The position numbers and the translations under genes were made by a program. The notes beneath the pieces are model-generated. The model made no database searches. It was not told where the DNA came from and saw nothing but the letters and a program-made list of their open reading frames with translations. Positions 4,522-30,880 of a DNA stretch of 58,941 nt are shown piece after piece (position 1 is the stretch's first letter; each line of letters begins with the position of its first letter). This DNA is from a virus (taxonomy: Duplodnaviria; Caudoviricetes): the IMG/VR virus record IMGVR_UViG_3300010354_000100, positions 1-58,941 of that record, one strand, 5' to 3'.

Positions 4522-4708
4522 TCGGGCCAGAGGCAGGAAATAAAAAACGAAATGTATTTATCAATCATGTTGGTATCAATTGTACAGGCAGCGGGCGCAG
4601 AAACCAACTTTTACCGGAAGAAAATTTCCTCAAGATTTTTTCACGGGAGGTTGTGATGTGTGGCAGAGCATGATACAATCTAAGTACAACCAAATGAAAG
4701 GAATACCA

Positions 4709-14837: not shown

Positions 14838-15049
14838 CCCCGCGGACACGAATCCGCCCCCGGGCGGAAACAGGCTCCCCCGGGCGGGAGCAGGGGCCAC
14901 TCTGCGTGGCCGGCCGACCACAAAAGAAATCTTTCACAAGGTTGCGAAAGCGACCGCGATGTGATACAGTATAGGTAGGGCAGTTGCCCTGAGAATAATT
15001 ATCGCGTCCGAGTTGCGAAAGCGACAAAGATGTGATACACTTAGAGTAT

Positions 15050-15275
15050 AAGGCAATACGAATACAGTAAGCAATTACTGACAACACATAGGAATACATC
15101 ACTTACACAAGTTGTATCACCAGCAATACTTACCGACGACCGTCCTAGGCGGTCGGCTCGTAGTCCCTTCTGCGTCGAGCCTTCCCTGTCAGTCCCTGTA
15201 ATCCGACGCAGGCGGAGTTGCTATCCGCCGAGTGTCAGTATGTGCGCGACGACGGTCGCTGTCGGTAGTTGCTTA
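15050..15275 (+). ncRNA. putative structured ncRNA
   Basis: promoter at 15012 and no ORF; long closing helix 15122-15144 pairs with 15251-15273. Confidence 0.55.
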
Positions 15276-15318
15276 GTGTATCCGTATGTGATACACTGTA
15301 AATAGAAAGGTAAACACA

Positions 15319-15495: not shown

Positions 15496-15566
15496 CCTAG
15501 GTCCCGGCGCGCCTTACCTCCTTTCCGCGCGCCGGGACCATCGGGCCCAAGGAAATCGCCGCGCCG

Positions 15567-15595
15567 AATAAATCCAACAATCAAGGAACACCATA
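15567..15595 (+). repeat. bipartite repeat copy 6
   Basis: AATAAATCCA-N8-GGAACACCATA. Confidence 0.9.
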
Positions 15596-15823
15596 AATTC
15601 GGGGGGCGGAGGCAGGTTTGCCGGGAGCAGGGGCAGGCCCCGGGCGACCGGCACAGGGCCGCACGCATCTCACCCGCTACTACTATTGTAGCACAAACTG
15701 ACGCAGAAAGCAACCCAAAAAGAAATTTATCTTTCTTCCCGTAGAGGTTGCTATCTGTCTAACAATATGGTACCATTGAGTTGTGGGGAATAAGCCCCAC
15801 CGAACAGAATAGGAGCAATAACA

Positions 15824-16922: not shown

Positions 16923-17095
16923 ACCAACAGCACCACTACGGCGCGTTCAGGAACTTCGAGGGCTGGGAGGTCTGGCTCTATGACGGGACTACACGCGTAG
17001 ACCGAGAGCGGGGAAACTTCCGCTCTGAGCAAGATGCCCGCCGTTACGCAAGTCGCCTAAACAGTTGCAAAATAGCAGAAAGTGTGATACACTAG
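16919..17095 (+). CDS. small hypothetical protein (paralog of the next gene)
   Basis: EGWEVW...F.SEQDARR.A..LN. Confidence 0.6.
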   Translation: MNQQHHYGAFRNFEGWEVWLYDGTTRVDRERGNFRSEQDARRYASRLNSCKIAESVIH

Positions 17096-17099
17096 AACT

Positions 17100-17288
17100 A
17101 TGAGAACAAAACACCCATACCCATACAACTACCAAGTATTCCCGACCCGCGAGGGCTGGGAACTGTGGTTCTGCGACGAGAACGAGCCGGAGAGCCGCGA
17201 ACAAGTGTTTGCCACCGAGCAGGAAGCACGGCGGGCAGCGGCACAACTGAACTTGGAGTACGAACTCCACAACATTCCCACGCCGTAA
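17100..17288 (+). CDS. small hypothetical protein (leaderless)
   Basis: EGWELW...F.TEQEARR.A..LN; ATG 7 nt after the -10. Confidence 0.65.
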   Translation: MRTKHPYPYNYQVFPTREGWELWFCDENEPESREQVFATEQEARRAAAQLNLEYELHNIPTP

Positions 17289-17786: not shown

Positions 17787-17868
17787 GCAGGTTCGGCTGG
17801 TGGGGCTCTCCTTACCCACCAGCCACAACCCGCCGCCGGGCAGAGGCCAAGGGAAACGCAGCGCGTGG

Positions 17869-17896
17869 AATAAATCCGATTATCTTGGAACACCAT
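17869..17896 (+). repeat. bipartite repeat copy 7
   Basis: AATAAATCCG-N8-GGAACACCAT. Confidence 0.95.
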
Positions 17897-18032
17897 TTCT
17901 TGCGCGGAGGCAGGGGCAGGCGGGCCGGCCACGCAGAGTGGTCGCCGGCCACCCAGAGTGACCAGCCGGCTGTAATCAGATTGTAATACTAATAGTGTTG
18001 CAAATCTGTCTAACATACCCTACAATCTAAGT

Positions 18033-20985: not shown

Positions 20986-21142
20986 CACCCCCTCGCTACA
21001 ATGGGGTTAGGTGGGAAACCACCTAACCCCAGAGGGCGACAGAGGCAGGCGGGCAAAAAATCTTTCTTGGATAGTTGCAAAACTGCCGAGACTGTGATAC
21101 ACTAATAACATAAGGCAATACCAAACCAACAAGGAGAAAAAA

Positions 21143-21340
21143 ATGAACCACTACATACACGCACACGACGTAAAGGCGGAGGACGTAATAGTTACCGTCA
21201 ATGGCAATCCCTACGACAGCGCATCGCTGACCGTTGAGATTACCGACACGAACCGCAATACGACCAGCATCCACTTCTACACGAACGAATTGCTGGAAGT
21301 CCTGCGAAAGTTCGCCCAAGAAGCCGTAGCCGTACGCTAA
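21143..21340 (+). CDS. hypothetical protein
   Basis: AAGGAG RBS, cassette. Confidence 0.7.
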   Translation: MNHYIHAHDVKAEDVIVTVNGNPYDSASLTVEITDTNRNTTSIHFYTNELLEVLRKFAQEAVAVR

Positions 21341-21461
21341 CGGCTGGGCTGGCGGTGGGACGAGAAGCGCCCACCGCCAGCCACCGGGCGACAGAGGCAG
21401 GCGGGCAAGAATTCCCCCCGCACGAGTTGCAAAACTATCAGGAGTGTGATACACTAGAACT

Positions 21462-21602
21462 ATGAGGAAACAACAGCACAACAACAAGCGCCGAGCGTGG
21501 AACGCAACAGACCGACAAGCATACGCCGACGGGCTGCGCACACGAGCGGTGACTATCCACCACAAGCGCAAGCCTGCGCCGACAGTCCGAGAATGGGACT
21601 GA
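21462..21602 (+). CDS. small basic protein (leaderless, not in ORF track)
   Basis: ATG 7 nt after the -10; MRKQQHNN... Confidence 0.55.
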   Translation: MRKQQHNNKRRAWNATDRQAYADGLRTRAVTIHHKRKPAPTVREWD

Positions 21603-21708
21603 ACAGCGGGCCGGCAAAAATAATCCTCTCAGGAGTTGCGAAACTCTCAGGAGTGTGATACACTAATAGTAGTGGGGCAAAAGCCTCACCTAACCAAAGG
21701 AGAAAAAA

Positions 21709-21867
21709 ATGAAAGAACATAACTGGACATTCGTAGACGAGGACAGCATCCGCTGCTCAGACTGCGACTGCCGTTTTGGTGGACGCTGGCACGACCTGCC
21801 CTGCGGTTCGTCGGAGGAGGAGTACATCGCCTTCGCCAACGCTCGCCAGAGCGAATACCTCAAATAA
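21709..21867 (+). CDS. small Cys-rich protein (not in ORF track)
   Basis: AAGGAG RBS; H.W...CSDCDC...PCG resembles the 16162 gene. Confidence 0.65.
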   Translation: MKEHNWTFVDEDSIRCSDCDCRFGGRWHDLPCGSSEEEYIAFANARQSEYLK

Positions 21868-21952
21868 GCCGAGACGCCCCGCGGGTTCCACCTCCTTCCC
21901 CCGCGGGGCAATTCGGGGCCGCCGGGCGGGGCCCAAGGAACGCTCAGCGCGA

Positions 21953-21984
21953 AATAAATCCGAACATTCTGGAACACCATATTT
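21953..21984 (+). repeat. bipartite repeat copy 10
   Basis: AATAAATCCG-N8-GGAACACCATATTT. Confidence 0.95.
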
Positions 21985-22190
21985 TCGGAAGCGGGCGGAG
22001 GCAGATTGTGAAAGTTCGCACTTTCACAAGACCGAGGAAGGCCGACCACTCTCCGTGACTAGCCGACCACTCTCCGTGAAGTGTAACAATTGTGTGACAT
22101 CTGCCGAAATCGGGAGTAAATGGTACACCCATAGTGTACACTGTTATTAGTGGGGAAAACGCCCCACCTAACCAAATGGAGGTAAGCAGA

Positions 22191-22523
22191 ATGAAAATCA
22201 CACTAGAACATCTCACTTCGGGCGTAGCCCGAAAAGTGGAGTACTGGTACGGCGAATGCGACCCAGCCGAAATTGAGGATGGCGTACTTGACGTAACCTA
22301 CGGCACTTTGGAAGTTACCTTTACTTCGGGACGCTCTTATGAGTACGCCGAAGTCACGGTAGGAACCTTTGCCGAACTAATCAAGGCAGTGAGTTTCGGC
22401 AAGTTTCTCAATCAGGAAATCAAGCCGTACCACGAGGTTCGTGAGACCACCCCAGCCGAATTGCTCGCCGAAATCAAGGCAAAGCAGGCTGAGGCAAAGG
22501 CTCTCAAAGCCTCGCTCGCCTAG
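22191..22523 (+). CDS. KTSC-domain protein
   Basis: GTLEVTFTSGRSYEY..V....LI.A.SFGKFLN.EIK. Confidence 0.8.
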   Translation: MKITLEHLTSGVARKVEYWYGECDPAEIEDGVLDVTYGTLEVTFTSGRSYEYAEVTVGTFAELIKAVSFGKFLNQEIKPYHEVRETTPAELLAEIKAKQAEAKALKASLA

Positions 22524-22720
22524 TCGGGTCGGGTCGGTGGGGCGAAAGCCTCACCGACCACCACCGGGCAGGGGCAGTTTGTGCGTTCTGGTATGTCTGT
22601 CTAACAGCCCACTAGACGCAATAGGAAGCGATTAGAGAGGCTCTACAAAAAAGATAAGACTAGGGCAGAATAACTACCTTGTCTCACAGCCTGAGCAATC
22701 TGGAAGCGTCTGGCAAGGGG

Positions 22721-22734
22721 CGAACATACGTTCG
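22721..22734. promoter_or_regulatory. LexA (SOS) box
   Basis: CGAAC-ATAC-GTTCG. Confidence 0.75.
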
Positions 22735-22870
22735 GTCGGCGGGCGAAGAGCACCGGGCAGCGGGCTTGTGAAAAGTTTCTTTTGTTTGGAGTTGCGAAAC
22801 TGTCGCAAGTGTGATACACTTTTATTAGTGGGGCAATCGCCTCACATAACACAACAAGGAGAAAAAAGTA

Positions 22871-23119
22871 ATGCGACACAAAGGAATGGTGGCAAGTGCC
22901 GAAGTGGTACTTAGCCCGACAATTGAGTACGGAGTCCGTACTGAGTGGGCAATAGCCCTCCACTTTCAGAGCCCGACTGGTGACAGTTCGGACTTTATGG
23001 TGCGAGAGTTGCCCTGCCTCTCACGAGAGCAGGCAGTCATTATTGCCGACAAGTGGAATAGCGAAGTATGCCCCGAACTGGTGGGCAGGTTCGCAGTATC
23101 CGACCTGTTGCCGAACTAA
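22871..23119 (+). CDS. hypothetical protein
   Basis: AAGGAG RBS. Confidence 0.7.
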   Translation: MRHKGMVASAEVVLSPTIEYGVRTEWAIALHFQSPTGDSSDFMVRELPCLSREQAVIIADKWNSEVCPELVGRFAVSDLLPN

Positions 23120-23296
23120 CCAACCCAAAAGGGTGGGGCGAAAGCCCCACCCGACAGGGGGCGGCAGAGGCAGCGGGCGAATTCTGTAACACAAAAGTAA
23201 CAAAAAAAAGTGTGTTTCGGGTTGACAACCGTACACCCTTGTGATACACTGTAATTAGTGGGGAAAACCCCACTACAACACAAAGGAGAAAACCAA

Positions 23297-23536
23297 ATGA
23301 ACGGAATAGTCGGAACAAGGGTGGCAATGCCAGCCAACCCAACAGCGTGGCTGAGGGACAACGCTCGCAAGGGCGCAATGCTCTACACCCGAGACGGCGT
23401 GACCGTGGCACTGGTGAACACCCAGACCACCTACGGAGACCCAGACAAGGGCACCCAGCAGCACCCCCTCTACGCCCCCCAGGGCGAGGGCAAGCGGGTC
23501 TACTCGGCTCGCCCAGTAATGCCAATGCTTGACTAA
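23297..23536 (+). CDS. LRDNAR-family paralog 2
   Basis: TAWLRDNARKGA..TRDGV...TY.DPD.G.Q.HPL. Confidence 0.75.
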   Translation: MNGIVGTRVAMPANPTAWLRDNARKGAMLYTRDGVTVALVNTQTTYGDPDKGTQQHPLYAPQGEGKRVYSARPVMPMLD

Positions 23537-23743
23537 GAACCCCCGAAGGGGAAGGGCGAAAGCCCTTCCCCGAACGGCGGGCAGAGGCAGCCCCCGGGCG
23601 AGCGGGCGTTTCTGTATGTCTGTCTAACACCCGATTAGAAGCGTCAGGAAGCCCCAGGACGCGAGCAGAAAAAAAGTGGAGACTAGGGCAGAATAAATAG
23701 TCTGTCTCACAACCTGACGCACTAGGGCACGTCTGGCAGAGGG

Positions 23744-23757
23744 CGAACGTATGTTCG
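23744..23757. promoter_or_regulatory. LexA (SOS) box
   Basis: CGAAC-GTAT-GTTCG. Confidence 0.75.
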
Positions 23758-23842
23758 CTCGGAGGGCGAGGAAGGCAGCGGGCCGGCAAAAAAAGTTTCT
23801 CTCGGAGTTGACAAACCGCTTAGGCTGTGATACACTAATAAC

Positions 23843-24130
23843 ATAAGCAACAACGGCGAAAGCGGGTAGTCCGCTAGTAACCAGACAACTAGCAGCCCCC
23901 ACTCTCTGGGCAACAATCCCCGTGAGAAGATAAGTGGCGACCCAAGCGGTCGGGCAAACGGGTGCGACGTTGGCGGTAGGTGAAAGCCCTACGACATACA
24001 ACCCCGAAAGGGGTGAAACGCGCCAAGGCTTCGGCGTGCGAGACGCACGTTACGGCTACGAAGCAAGAGGGCACGGTGAGGCTTTACCTGACGGGCAACA
24101 ATCCCCTAGTAGGCAAAGATAGCCACCCGC
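23843..24130 (+). ncRNA. putative highly structured ncRNA of about 290 nt
   Basis: promoter at 23807, no RBS-led ORF, closing helix 23862-70/24122-30, many hairpins, two GGG-CAACAAT-CCC stem-loops. Confidence 0.65.
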
Positions 24131-24234
24131 AGCGGGTGAGAACCCCGCAAAAATAATTCTCTCAGGAGTTGACAAACTCCCGAGGGTGTGATACACTGGA
24201 ATTATCAGGCAATAACCAACCCAAGGAGGAAACA

Positions 24235-24489
24235 ATGGACACAATGGATTATCTCTCGGCAGAGCAGGTCAACGGAATAGACCCATTCTGCGAATGGTGC
24301 GGGCGGGTCACCTGCCACATTGGGGAGCACGAGCACGAACTGGCGCTAGGGCTTGTCACCTACGAGGAGAACAGTTACGTCAAGGTAACCGCCCTCGGGT
24401 ATGCGGTCAAGGCGAACGAGGAGGTTTCTCGCAAACTCTCGGATGCGCTCTACGGGCTCTACCTCATCGAGGGAGAGGTTGCTCAATGA
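24235..24489 (+). CDS. hypothetical protein (CxxC..CH)
   Basis: AAGGAGG RBS. Confidence 0.7.
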   Translation: MDTMDYLSAEQVNGIDPFCEWCGRVTCHIGEHEHELALGLVTYEENSYVKVTALGYAVKANEEVSRKLSDALYGLYLIEGEVAQ

Positions 24490-24617
24490 GACTCCAACTA
24501 TTGCTCACCTGCCCCGAATGCGGGCAGACGCTCACGAGGGAGGAGATGGCTTACGGTCACGACTGCGAAGTCCCAGCCGAAGGACAGTGGAGCCCCGAGG
24601 AGGACGATAACGCCTAG
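24486..24617 (+). CDS. small Zn-finger peptide
   Basis: ATGA overlap; CPEC...YGHDCE. Confidence 0.6.
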   Translation: MRLQLLLTCPECGQTLTREEMAYGHDCEVPAEGQWSPEEDDNA

Positions 24618-24858
24618 CCCCCGGGCAGCGTTGCCGAAGGGCGGCAGAGGCAGAGGAGAGAGGCGGCGGGCGAGCGGGGCGGTCTCTCCCCGACTTTTCC
24701 TCCCTGCCCCTCTACTTCCATTGTAGCACAACCCGACGCAAAAAGCAACCTCTAAAAATAAATTTTTTTTCTTCCCGTAAGAGTTGACAGTACGCCCCAC
24801 ACTTGGTACAATGTAGTTGTAAGGCAATCCCGCCTTACAAACAGAAAGAGGTAACTCA

Positions 24859-25101
24859 ATGAGTCAAGTCCAAGAAGGTGAGATGGTGAACGTGTTCCAG
24901 TTCCGCTTTCTCATCCACTGCTACATCACAGAGATTCTCTCAGGTCTCCGTGTGTGTCAAATCCCACTGAGCCGAGTCGCCCCACGATTCGGTGTCACCA
25001 CCAAGAACAAGAAGAAGGCACTCACCCAACTCCTCGCCAACTACGAGGCAACAATGGGCGAGCCTTACGAAGACGACCGCCTAGTGCGAATCTTCGGCTA
25101 G
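24859..25101 (+). CDS. hypothetical protein
   Basis: GAGG RBS, cassette. Confidence 0.7.
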   Translation: MSQVQEGEMVNVFQFRFLIHCYITEILSGLRVCQIPLSRVAPRFGVTTKNKKKALTQLLANYEATMGEPYEDDRLVRIFG

Positions 25102-25167
25102 CGAGTCCGCTCGGGCAGGCAACCCCTGCCCGAGCACTTTCGCACGAGGGCGGCAGAGGCAGGCGGG

Positions 25168-25181
25168 CGAACGTATGTTCG
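25168..25181. promoter_or_regulatory. LexA (SOS) box
   Basis: CGAAC-GTAT-GTTCG. Confidence 0.75.
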
Positions 25182-25441
25182 CCCCCGGGCGATGAGAGCG
25201 GCGGGCTGCGGCGGTGGCGGGCCGAGGAGAAGAGAGGCGGCGGGCAAGAAGGGCGGCGGGCCAGAGCCGAGGAGGGAGACGGTCTCTCCCCTCCCCCACT
25301 ATCAGTGTATCACATCTAAGCGAATTTGTCAACCTCAAAAGATTTATTTTTTTTTGGCGTTTTAGGTTGACAAATGTCTGACAATACCCTATACTGGAAT
25401 TAGTGGGGAAAACCTCACCTAACACAATAAAGGAGAACAAA

Positions 25442-25516
25442 ATGACTAACGAAGAGTTCCTCGCAAAGGTTGCCGAGATTGTAGAAGAGATTCTCGCAAT
25501 CGTTGACGAAGAGTAA
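25442..25516 (+). CDS. 24-aa acidic amphipathic micropeptide
   Basis: own promoter plus AAGGAG RBS; MTNEEFLAKVAEIVEEILAIVDEE. Confidence 0.6.
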   Translation: MTNEEFLAKVAEIVEEILAIVDEE

Positions 25517-25601
25517 ATAAAAAATAGGGGTTCGGGTTGACAAAAGCCCGAACCTCTGTTATACTTAGATTAGTAGGGAATACCAACCAAAGGAGAACAA
25601 A

Positions 25602-25748
25602 ATGGAAAACGAAGACCTAGACAGAATTATCTGGAATGAGTACGAGGCAGGCTGGTACGGAGTGCCAGTAGGCAAGTACACCTACCGACAAATGCTCGCC
25701 AAGTGGAGAGCCGAAAACGAAGAAATCCGAAAGGCGAAAGCCAACTAG
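25602..25748 (+). CDS. small hypothetical protein
   Basis: own promoter plus AAGGAG RBS. Confidence 0.65.
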   Translation: MENEDLDRIIWNEYEAGWYGVPVGKYTYRQMLAKWRAENEEIRKAKAN

Positions 25749-25909
25749 GACCGAGAGTCCCGAAGGGGGAGGGCGACCTCCCCCGAGAGGGGCGACAGGG
25801 GCAGCCCCGGGCGGCGGACAAGAAATATTTGCCCGAGAGGTTGACAAATCAAAAGTAATGTGATACACTGGTTTTAGTAGGGAATACCAACAACAAAAGG
25901 AGAAACACA

Positions 25910-26119
25910 ATGGATAAGAACAAGCAACTACAAAACCTCGCCGAGGAGTTCTTCGGTGAGTGGGCAATCGTCGCCAGCGACATTCCTGCTGTCGTGAAGA
26001 CTTTCGCCCGATACCTTCGCAGTGAGAAGGGCTTCACGCTCAACATCACCGACGAGGCGTGGGAGCGCTACACGGCGGGCTGGTTCGCCAAGCGGCTCTC
26101 GCCAGCGGGCCGCCGCTAA
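25910..26119 (+). CDS. hypothetical protein
   Basis: own promoter plus AAGGAG RBS. Confidence 0.7.
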   Translation: MDKNKQLQNLAEEFFGEWAIVASDIPAVVKTFARYLRSEKGFTLNITDEAWERYTAGWFAKRLSPAGRR

Positions 26120-26225
26120 ACCCCAAGGGGAGAGGCGAGAAATATTTGCCCACGGAGTTGACAAACCGAGGGTGGTGTGATACACTGGAATTATCAGGTA
26201 ATAACCAACACAAAGGAGAAACATA

Positions 26226-26423
26226 ATGAAGGAATACACACTGGTAGCAGAACTCACCGACGCAGAGGGTGGCGAGTGGACGGCGGACGCCGGAATCCTC
26301 GCAGCCGATGATGCGTCGGCAGTTCGTCAGGCTCGCATTTGGGCAAAGGACGAGGCGACGGCACAGGGTGCCAAACTCGTCGAGTTCTACGCTCAGGATG
26401 CCCAGGGCGTGGCGCACCGCTAA
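26226..26423 (+). CDS. hypothetical protein
   Basis: own promoter plus AAGGAG RBS. Confidence 0.7.
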   Translation: MKEYTLVAELTDAEGGEWTADAGILAADDASAVRQARIWAKDEATAQGAKLVEFYAQDAQGVAHR

Positions 26424-26444
26424 ACCCCCAAGGGGAGAGGCGAG

Positions 26445-26458
26445 CGAACACTTGTTCG
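26445..26458. promoter_or_regulatory. LexA (SOS) box
   Basis: CGAAC-ACTT-GTTCG. Confidence 0.7.
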
Positions 26459-26583
26459 CCCTCCCCTGAGGGAGGCGGCAGAGGCAGAAATAGGAGGGCG
26501 AGCGCAAAAAATGTTCGCCCGAGAATGCTTGACAAATGTCAGAGAGTGTGATACACTGGTATTAGTAGGGAAAGGAGACCCGA

Positions 26584-26712
26584 ATGACACCAAGAGACCA
26601 GAACAGAATCACGAGGGACGAGCACGAGGTCGTACCGATTTACGACTGGGCGCTTGACCCCGAAATGAACGAGGACTTCGCCCAGTGGGCTGAGGAACTC
26701 GCCGAGGGCTGA
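26584..26712 (+). CDS. small acidic protein
   Basis: own promoter plus AAGGAG RBS. Confidence 0.6.
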   Translation: MTPRDQNRITRDEHEVVPIYDWALDPEMNEDFAQWAEELAEG

Positions 26713-26871
26713 GAGGTCCGAGGAGAAGGGCGACAAAAGAAAATAGTCCTACCAAGGGGGACGGCCTTGCCTGACGGCGGGCCTCCCCCGAGGAGGAGAA
26801 GGATTCCGGAGGGAGAGGTTGTCTTTCCCCGAGGGAAGTTGTATAATAAAAGTAACAAGAAAGGGAAAGTA

Positions 26872-26937
26872 ATGCATTGGGCGTTCGGATTCGCACTCGT
26901 TGCGCTAACCATTCGGTTAGTCGGAAAGAGTCAATAA
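26872..26937 (+). CDS. 21-aa hydrophobic micropeptide
   Basis: promoter with TATAAT plus AAGGG RBS; MHWAFGFALVALTIRLVGKSQ. Confidence 0.45.
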   Translation: MHWAFGFALVALTIRLVGKSQ

Positions 26938-27007
26938 CAAAGGTTGCAAAAACTCAAGACATCTGTTATACTAATAACAGGGCAGAGAGAAAGGAAAAGG
27001 TAAACAC

Positions 27008-27103
27008 ATGGTTATCGAAATTTATGACTGGATGTGTGCCGTGCCGGTGGCAGTTGCTGCCGTCGTCATCGCCGTCATCTTCAAAGCCAAGAAAATGAAG
27101 TAA
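27008..27103 (+). CDS. 31-aa single-TM peptide
   Basis: promoter plus AAGG RBS; ...VPVAVAAVVIAVIFKAKKMK. Confidence 0.55.
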   Translation: MVIEIYDWMCAVPVAVAAVVIAVIFKAKKMK

Positions 27104-27360
27104 TCCAAGGGCGCAGCCCTGCGGGCGAGTGTGTTCGCCTGCGGGGCTCGCCTACGGGCGAGGCTTGTGAAAATCTGCACGAACCACGGGCGGCGGGCAA
27201 GAGCGGAGGAGAAGGGCGACCATCTCACGATTTTGGTCAAAACCCGAGGATGCGGCGGGCGAAGAGAGAAAAAAATGTGCCGCGGGAGTTGCGCGCGGGC
27301 TGAATCTGTGATACACTGGGATTAGTGGGGAAAACCCCACCAAACACAAAGGAGAAGACA

Positions 27361-27579
27361 ATGAAAACCATCAACGAGCAAGCACAAGAAATGCGAGAGT
27401 TACTGAGCCACTTGGTCTCCCGGATAGACGAAGCGGTGAACCAAGCCAACGAGGAAAGCGACAAGGAGTACGCAGACAATCAACTCGCAGATGAGTTGAG
27501 CAGCGTGGCCTTCCGGTGCGACCACCTCGCCTACGACTACAAGTACGGCCAAGACATCCTCCGAGCCTCCGAGCGGTAA
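27361..27579 (+). CDS. hypothetical helical protein
   Basis: own promoter plus AAGGAG RBS. Confidence 0.7.
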   Translation: MKTINEQAQEMRELLSHLVSRIDEAVNQANEESDKEYADNQLADELSSVAFRCDHLAYDYKYGQDILRASER

Positions 27580-30653: not shown

Positions 30654-30725
30654 GCCCAGTTAGCACAGTGGTAGTGCATCCGCCTTGTAAGCGGAAGGTC
30701 CTCAGTTCAATCCTGAGACTGGGCT
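30654..30725 (+). tRNA. trnT: tRNA-Thr(UGU)
   Basis: GCCCAGT/ACTGGGC acceptor; TCCGC-CTTGTAA-GCGGA anticodon arm; GTTCAAT T-loop. Confidence 0.9.
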
Positions 30726-30880
30726 CTGTGTGGCGGATTCGTCCACCGTCACGAAATTCGTGATATGAGAGGAAACTGATACGAATTCCCCTCACCCCAG
30801 CGATACAAATAGTTGACACTGGCGGCAACTGTCCGTATCGTAAAAGTGTTAGCGATAGTGGTACATAAGGGAAGAACAAC

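Follow-up and report, generated by a model that had tools for sequence, protein, structure and literature searches.

Positions 23843 to 24150 of a phage genome fragment are probably an independently promoted, structured, non-coding RNA (ncRNA) gene with a functional transcript, a conclusion that we draw from sequence analysis. A novel ncRNA in a cassette slot was the core of an original prediction for this stretch, and the present analysis supports it: no open reading frame (ORF) that qualifies as a gene and no Rfam match were found, and the RNA has ORF-less homologues and compensatory base changes. The fuller statement, in which this functional RNA also takes a trans-acting role by presenting a loop, is more tentative and falls short of probable. 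With moderate confidence, we place the RNA in a small undescribed family within a known kind, the phage-encoded small RNAs. The element that would define the family is a long irregular hairpin, which can be drawn with an AGAU bulge on its 3′ strand and in which GGCAACAAUCCC places CAACAAUC at the apex.

The phage and its ORF-less cassette

The window (the whole stretch of DNA analysed, 58,941 nt) is a 58.9-kb fragment from an uncultured virus record, with a CheckV completeness of 43%. It carries genes for terminase, portal, protease, major head protein, and ribonucleotide reductase, and at 11–586 for a 191-aa protein with a WhiB domain (Pfam PF02467, E = 1.4e-12). WhiB is an established marker of actinobacteria and actinophages, and an actinobacterial host is probable because the phage encodes such a protein. 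Actinophages are also called by WhiB in PMC10914622. Among cultured phages of bacteria, the best relatives of the terminase are Gordonia phages (41–43% identity), with two archaeal Methanobacterium phage records slightly higher (43.5%), and related contigs are present in runs labelled as lake-water or freshwater metagenomes. Given the WhiB protein, the terminase relatives, and these lake and freshwater runs, the host is probably a freshwater actinobacterium. A search for the host by the ribonucleotide reductase returned only L210, a 3.3-kb contig of an 'Alphaproteobacteria' MAG (76% identity); it is probably a phage fragment binned with that MAG.

On the + strand, about 13.6–27.4 kb of the window is an array of small-gene cassettes with promoters of the form TTGnnn-17-TAcAcT plus an extended −10 TG. 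The cassette promoter type has 21 matches in the window against 0.28 expected, and promoter-like sites in 21.0–27.5 kb number 13 against 2.2 expected. In the coding cassettes, the promoter is followed by a short leader, an AAGGAG ribosome site, and an ORF of 40–110 aa, and each gene of the array is trailed by GC-rich hairpins that lack U tracts; terminator-like sites show no excess in 21000–27500 (10 versus 9.9 in shuffles). The neighbours of the ORF-less cassette all share one orientation, and every gene downstream of it has a strong promoter of its own. The cassette and its surroundings comprise the following features.

23745–23756, no strand: GAAC-N4-GTTC palindrome GAACGTATGTTC, 52 nt upstream of the −35 element, part of a repeated intergenic module
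23808–23836, + strand: cassette promoter TTGACA-17-TACACT with extended −10 TG, the same type as before the neighbouring small genes
23843–24150, + strand: predicted ORF-less transcript, the two-unit RNA, its 5′ end placed from the promoter
24169–24197, + strand: promoter of the next cassette
24235–24489, + strand: 84-aa protein with CxxC...TCHIGEHE, downstream of the RNA; in L195, a relative described below, the RNA cassette is likewise followed by a homologue

The 3′ end of the RNA was set from the last hairpin and the next promoter. As had been predicted, the promoter opens a cassette slot without an ORF led by a ribosome site: between 23837 and 24168, no start codon is led by AGGAG or GGAGG, and the sole match is a GTG frame of 26 aa behind GAGG at 24076. 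The two longest + strand frames of the cassette (62 and 58 aa) both start with GTG and lack a ribosome site, and a natural variant has +2 and +3 nt insertions within the longest frame of the window RNA, which argue against coding. A small protein gene, that is, a conserved ORF with a start signal, was found neither in the window RNA nor in its short homologues L003 and L195, and the latter two contain no + strand ORF of at least 20 aa inside the RNA. The LexA box predicted upstream is present as the GAAC-N4-GTTC palindrome at 23745–23756, which could be a Gram-positive/actinobacterial LexA-box-like site or an RNA hairpin.

No known RNA family accounts for the cassette. At the gathering score, an Rfam search of the whole window returned nothing except one tRNA (30654), and none of its matches lay over 23843–24150, in agreement with the original prediction; at E up to 10, the region 23500–24400 gave five weak matches, the best with 17.7 bits against a gathering score of 37.8, and none over the core. 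Membership in Rfam 15 families, including tmRNA, RNase P, SRP, 6S, 6C, C4 antisense, GOLLD, ROOL, and HEARO, was not found, and the short homologues L003 and L195 gave no relevant Rfam match. ARAGORN, which searches for tRNA and tmRNA, reported one tRNA-Thr(UGU) at 30654–30726 and none at 23843–24150.

The minimum free energy (MFE) of the whole RNA is modestly better than that of shuffles, with z-scores of −2.24 for the + strand and −1.33 for the − strand; taken separately, unit A has a z-score of +0.13 and unit B one of −1.46. The MFE fold retains most of the helices that had been named beforehand. As complementary stretches, GCTAGT/ACTAGC, CCACT/AGTGG, CGACC/GGTCG, GTAGG/CCTAC, ACCCC-GAAA-GGGGT, GCTTCG/CGAAGC around CGTGC/GCACG, and CTTT.CCT/AGG.AAAG were all recovered. 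The helix TTGGCG/CGCCAA is possible as complementary stretches, but the MFE fold pairs this region differently. The ends, claimed to pair at 23862–23870 and 24122–24130, can form 8 of 9 pairs, of which the MFE fold uses 6. The parts of the RNA are listed below; R1 is the covariance model described in the next section.

23873–23893, + strand: unit A hairpin H1′, GCUAGU-9 nt-ACUAGC, predicted fold
23899–23937, + strand: unit A loop module H2a; its MFE structure equals the drawn structure, and it matches R1 with 13.6 bits (E = 0.069)
23938–23952, + strand: unit A hairpin H3′, CGACC-CAAGC-GGUCG; a natural variant retains the helix through changes on two strands
23976–23993, + strand: hairpin GUAGG-UGAAAGC-CCUAC, of the GGG-UGAAAG-CCC type that ends gene cassettes in the phage group
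24000–24006, + strand: left AACCCCG direct repeat, which bounds a natural 141-nt deletion
24026–24150, + strand: unit B, with the ORF-less 125-nt RNAs in L003 and L195 as its homologues (R1 positions 1–125)
24028–24064, + strand: unit B hairpin H1, GCUUCG...CGAAGC around GUGC-GAGAC-GCAC, with 4 pairs changed on both sides (helices 1 and 2)
24080–24124, + strand: unit B loop module H2b, from predicted fold and alignment
24132–24148, + strand: 3′ hairpin GCGGG-UGAGAAC-CCCGC without U tract, overlapping the right AACCCCG repeat (24141–24147)

In the variant of H3′, C23942A occurs with G23948T, which turns a C-G pair into A-U, plus insertions, and a 6-bp helix replaces the 5-bp one. The hairpin at 23976–23993 may be the end of unit A.

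The invariant loop and its homologues

The twin loop motif reported in the original prediction, GGGCAACAATCCC at 23908 and 24093, occurs exactly twice in the 58.9-kb window, where 0.16 copies are expected, and at least two copies appeared in 2 of 100 shuffles. By our own estimate (about 1e-5), chance falls far short of explaining two copies only 185 nt apart. In H2a, the outer helix is CCAC/GUGG, the 3′ bulge AGAUAA, the middle helix UCUC/GAGA, and the inner helix GGG(U)/(G)CCC; in H2b, an outer GGCU/AGCC helix and an AGAU bulge surround a middle helix and an inner GGG/CCC helix. Both end in CAACAAUC, which forms the apical loop in all four modules folded (two from the window and one each from L003 and L195). 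One common layout is possible in all four despite their differing helix sequences:

Outer helix (4 bp): GGCU/AGCC in three modules, CCAC/GUGG in one
3′ bulge: AGAU or AGAUAA
Middle helix: CACC/GGUG, UCUC/GAGA, or UU+CCUG/UAGG+AA
Inner helix (3–5 bp): closed by G-C pairs
Apical loop: CAACAAUC

The 12-mer GGCAACAAUCCC at the apex is invariant across the four copies. An AGAU bulge on the 3′ strand can likewise be drawn in each, but this layout lies 1.8 kcal/mol (L003) and 5.7 kcal/mol (L195) above the MFE, and the bulge is therefore the less certain part. An alignment by MAFFT alone put the 3′ strands of the modules out of register, and no pair counts were taken from it. In the searchable literature, GGCAACAAUCCC appears only as unrelated DNA strings, once in each of three papers.

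The relatives were reached through neighbouring genes and through the motif. The upstream gene led to four related records (G001–G004) and the terminase to 35 records. BLAST of the RNA found only a 22-nt hairpin in G001 (E = 0.105) among the four and nothing among the 35, and BLAST of 23600–24300 against 50,697 phage records gave no match. Among viral contigs, neither the twin-motif pattern nor the exact 22-mer of unit A had a match, and a generic promoter pattern, with at least 119 single chance matches, was uninformative. A weak nhmmer match (E = 0.34) at the end of G002 led to a short cassette, L003; by sequence alone, the window and L003 are weakly alike (nhmmer E = 0.17–0.87). This cassette has the same promoter type and, over about 125–135 nt, one GGCAACAAUCCC hairpin, after which the next promoter follows. 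A metagenome scan for a −10 element followed at 55–85 nt by the 12-mer yielded four loci, three of which are identical to G002 and one a new variant, L195, 92% alike to L003. In the homologues, the 12-mer lies 66–77 nt past the −10 element of a promoter of the same type, and the window, L003, and L195 each hold an ORF-less cassette behind TTGnnn-17-TAnAnT with an extended −10 TG.

Homologues and covariation had been proposed as the check on the RNA, and homologues with compensatory base changes were found. For the covariance model R1, L003 and L195 were the only input sequences, and its structure of three hairpins (H1, H2, and H3) was drawn by hand. Run against the whole 58.9 kb on both strands with filters off, it placed first a full-length match at 24026–24150 (31 bits, rough E = 3.9e-6) and second the other loop module at 23900–23936 (13.6 bits, E = 0.069). 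In the model-guided alignment of three sequences, pairing holds in 96.4% of 83 cells, and among the 29 pairs 8 are changed on both sides and still paired; these counts come from three distinct full-length sequences, in an alignment fitted to the model and with a structure derived from two of the three. None of 500 column shuffles reached the observed pairing, and sliding the partners by 1–3 columns left 0–1 two-sided pairs. The window RNA thus matches a model of the other family members and shows compensatory change, the family being three distinct sequences.

Other candidate relatives were rejected. The segment 4400–4640 of L002, considered as a homologue of the central domain, shares only a generic GGG-UGAAAG-CCC hairpin and a recurrent intergenic element. 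The pattern GGCAACAATCCC..GATAGCC matched six loci among viral contigs, near the chance number by our own estimate, and only L029 (the same as G002) is related. L025 and L027 have no related terminase, no match to R1 or R2 (the model of all three sequences), and no Rfam family, and we do not count them as family members. Both contain large, ORF-poor, hairpin-rich stretches with GGCAACAATCCC...GATAGCC on the minus strand (L027, about 550–1350; L025, about 1–560), which may be unrelated large RNAs; one of the two is a complete 150-kb record.

The twin motif can also be read as DNA. Identical 13-bp direct repeats 185 bp apart, in a region that is a recombination hot spot, could bind a DNA-binding protein in replication, packaging, or recombination. 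We regard this as exceedingly unlikely: the short homologues carry a single copy, the conservation obeys RNA pairing rules of the + strand, G-U included, the + strand folds better than the − strand relative to shuffles, and no AT-rich stretch, iteron cluster, or local turn of GC skew was found.

Modularity and distribution of the cassette

Contigs of four runs were placed on 23200–24800 at 85% likeness. A deletion variant without 24000–24140, between the two AACCCCG repeats, was present in an RNA-library contig (X23) and in a DNA contig (X3); in both, 23999 is joined to 24141, and 7 letters at the joint fit both sides. Unit A alone is this deletion variant, unit B alone is the 125-nt RNA of L003 and L195, and A plus B is the window RNA. 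Because each unit also occurs alone, we read the window RNA as a fusion of the two. The earlier description of one multi-domain RNA of 290 nt is accordingly kept as to an ncRNA with several hairpins, but revised to two units, each alone elsewhere. Against the model, unit A matches only in H2.

The family is thinly spread. Of 41 other records, only G002 matched R1, and one of 35 matched R2. Over 76 kb, G003 and G002 share 99.9% identity, and they part exactly at the cassette, where both contigs end; G003 has no RNA cassette and a different next gene. The genes on either side of the RNA in L195 are direct neighbours in L005, with no RNA between them, and contigs of relatives (85% likeness) join 23769 to 24165 and 23769 to 24645, with one further joint that has a short side. 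This patchy presence among relatives marks the cassette as an accessory and mobile component of the array. The full promoter is kept in every cassette variant, and the genes downstream of the RNA cassette differ between L003 and L195. The TCHIGEHE protein (window 24235–24489; L195 514–735; L005 4242–4463) has three invariant Cys and two invariant His and matches no Pfam family; the RNA cassette precedes it in the window and in L195, but in L005 it stands without one. Relatives of this downstream protein were absent from a first search, and a later one gave only the record of L005.

Recombination, which is heavy in this array, could also have produced a non-functional leftover, either a cassette minus its gene or generic intergenic hairpins trapped between promoters. 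The exact divergence of the two near-identical phages G002 and G003 at this point, the relatives' contigs that skip the cassette, and the rarity of the family would suit such an origin, as would the poor fold of unit A, which alone does no better than shuffles, and the internal GGG-UGAAAG-CCC and CCCC-GAA(A)-GGGG hairpins, which resemble those after ordinary genes. The intergenic DNA of the phage group is rich in GC hairpins of the GGG-UGAAAG-CCC type, a point that counts against our reading to the extent that some of the RNA helices may be generic. A decaying remnant is nevertheless improbable in our view: a 12-mer invariant in four copies amid compensatory helix changes would be unexpected of it, every variant has a full promoter, and no version bears a trace of a ribosome site or ORF.

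In the RNA-library run, the X23 contig over the cassette variant has a depth like that of its neighbours and extends into the next promoter and start codon, with DNA carry-over possible. It starts ~13 nt after the predicted start, as the loose end of one contig in one study. The promoter region 23686–23847 has no contig in X23 and has one in the DNA run X3, and X24 contigs cover 24274–24565 only.

Another reading takes the cassette as a cis-acting element of the array, either a nascent antiterminator like HK022 put or a processing or stability element for read-through transcripts, which we consider very unlikely. HK022 put exerts its effect in cis, on the transcribing polymerase and ahead of terminators. 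Like put, the window RNA is phage-encoded, lies just downstream of an early promoter, forms stem-loops, and has no ORF. The cassette has no intrinsic terminator (terminator-like sites being at the shuffled level), transcripts from 23808 probably run on since the neighbours are co-oriented, and the RNA-library contig links the RNA to the next promoter and start codon. Unlike the situation of put, a strong promoter precedes each downstream gene, leaving no obvious need of antitermination; the element moves between positions, with different genes after it in L003 and L195, and is missing from most relatives that retain the same genes; and no resemblance to put or another Rfam cis element was found.

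A second promoter-led ORF-less cassette lies at 15013–15300 of the window, with a transcript predicted at about 15042–15268. The segment 15013–15268 has homologues in G004, G002, and G003 (nhmmer E about 1e-13), and RNAalifold over four phages gave 78 pairs, 14 with compensatory change, in a fold with a hairpin whose UUGCUA loop is conserved and a long closing helix; 15013–15300 has no Rfam match at the gathering score. The segment looks like a further phage RNA gene, one with wider conservation, and with this second ORF-less cassette, RNA cassettes therefore appear as a feature of the phage group.

Several other elements recur in the array. An intergenic module of ~250 nt at 23537–23807 is repeated at 22537–22783 (nhmmer E = 1e-26), and L002, L003, and L004 contain relatives of it; both copies hold GAAC-N4-GTTC (22722 and 23745). 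The window contains six exact copies of this palindrome where 1.55 would be expected, five of the six being intergenic, and these boxes could be LexA-type operators or RNA hairpins. TGTCTAACA occurs 7 times, always on the + strand, against 0.29 expected (15756, 18007, 19146, 19221, 22598, 23621, and 28155); at 15756 and 18007 and in L002, L003, and L005, it lies between the −35 and −10 elements of a second promoter type and may be an operator. By eye, a recurrent intergenic element, CCAAGGAAAnCGC...GCG..AAUAAAUCC....GGAACACCAU, was seen at 15540–15610, at 17848–17908, and in L002 at 4570–4635. The cassettes at 17065 and 21427 have AGAACU-AUG 6 nt past the −10 element without a ribosome site and look like leaderless mRNAs; the cassette start at 17100 opens a 62-aa ORF.

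The leaders of the array bear on one further claim, a link of the RNA to AAUCCC leader hairpins. Such hairpins, GG(G)C-AAUCCC-GCC(C) at the leader start, were found at 3 of 35 promoter-like sites (18331, 19641, and 24784), and GGCAAUMCC stands at the leader start of many others. The 12-mer of the loop resembles the leader motif with CAA inserted. The resemblance is real and extends to three leaders, but the letters sit in a different structural context and pair differently, and mimicry of the leader hairpins by the RNA loop is only a possibility. Leaders after 18331, 19641, 24784, 21636, 22792, 23222, and 27289 would form GGGC-AAUCCC-GCCC or GUGGGG-AAAA-CCCCAC hairpins of −11 to −13 kcal/mol, which may serve as 5′ stabilisers; other cassette leaders are unstructured GGCAAUACCAACC.

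Candidate partners and known systems

We propose that the RNA is an accessory cassette carried among the early small genes of an uncultured phage from fresh water and that it would act in trans during early infection. The invariant loop and the bulge would form the recognition surface for a partner, and a host or phage protein would be titrated or scaffolded through the presentation of one or two loop copies. A protein sponge or scaffold had also been suggested in the original prediction, and it is a guess. That the partner of the loop is a protein is possible, though doubtful. It is somewhat favoured over a plain antisense seed because the closing pairs and the loop, possibly with the bulge, are invariant, and a protein-binding role is further favoured because no complementary site beyond chance was found in the phage DNA.

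Base-pairing against a host RNA is the main rival to a protein decoy or scaffold. The CAACAAUC loop with its adjacent C run would then be an antisense seed for a host mRNA or other RNA, with the two loops redundant, and we judge this unlikely. The loop is invariant while the stems vary, one RNA carries two identical loops, and the actinobacterial RNA 6C reportedly acts without chaperones, to go by a 2019 title of Mai, all of which would suit base-pairing. According to PMC10470900, B11 has two C-rich loops, either of which is enough for repression. The loop of the window RNA is A/C-mixed rather than C-rich, and its closing G-C pairs are invariant too, a better fit to a shape-specific binder. 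Complementarity was searched in the phage DNA and related records. With up to two mismatches allowed, GGGATTGTTGC matched 28 times where 18.4 matches were expected, and two of the 28 are simply the opposite strand of the RNA. On the + strand, ATTGTTG stands at 5 positions, all of them away from start codons, and with up to one mismatch, the 12-mer had 10 matches in 28 related records against 4 for the control.

Turning back to a protein partner, the protein-sponge RNAs offer one comparison: CsrB and RsmZ bind CsrA, and CrcZ binds Hfq/Crc. Like these, the window RNA is ORF-less and repeats an identical short motif in hairpin loops; they have 6–20 motifs, whereas the window family has one or two, and the motif is not GGA. 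AACAAU fits an A-R-N repeat, and to our knowledge most actinobacteria lack Hfq and CsrA. Among actinobacterial RNAs, 6C and B11 would be the nearest by analogy. 6C is a host RNA of <100 nt, and it was absent from the Rfam matches at E up to 10. The loops of 6C and B11 are C-rich and pair with G tracts, whereas that of the window RNA is CAACAAUC; the likeness lies in what is probably the same host phylum and in two hairpins with identical or similar, possibly redundant loops (PMC10470900).

The nearest analogues in kind are the abundant early-promoter ncRNAs of the Cluster A mycobacteriophages L5, D29, and StarStuff (PMC5712189). They share with the window RNA an actinophage origin, an early sigma-A-type promoter, the lack of a conserved ORF, and a length of a few hundred nt or less. 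According to the same source, RNA-seq and Northern blots document these ncRNAs, which are toxic to their host, whereas the window RNA is known from its sequence, and they lie at the genome end behind Pleft, whereas the window RNA lies in a gene-cassette array.

A bolder reading, which we regard as a long shot, takes the RNA genes of this phage group as moron-like, self-contained promoter-plus-RNA cassettes that are shuffled, fused, and lost in an early array for host takeover, with the CAACAAUC loop as a portable decoy of a host factor, its valency tunable between one and two loops. If true, it would define a new class of RNA-based host-takeover or counter-defence element aimed at a freshwater actinobacterial factor, for example, a defence or RNA-turnover protein. 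Were the partner of the window RNA a defence or RNA-decay factor, the RNA would be an RNA-based takeover tool; otherwise, it would be one more orphan RNA family. Phage ncRNAs are few and come mostly from model phages, and for phages of the abundant freshwater actinobacteria almost none have been described. The family presents a compact RNA with a small invariant recognition element, an 8-nt loop plus bulge, and its natural one-unit and two-unit versions, together with its presence or absence in near-identical phages, would be useful for pull-downs and fitness comparisons. Together with the cassette at 15013–15268, the RNA suggests that the early array of this phage mixes protein and RNA cassettes.
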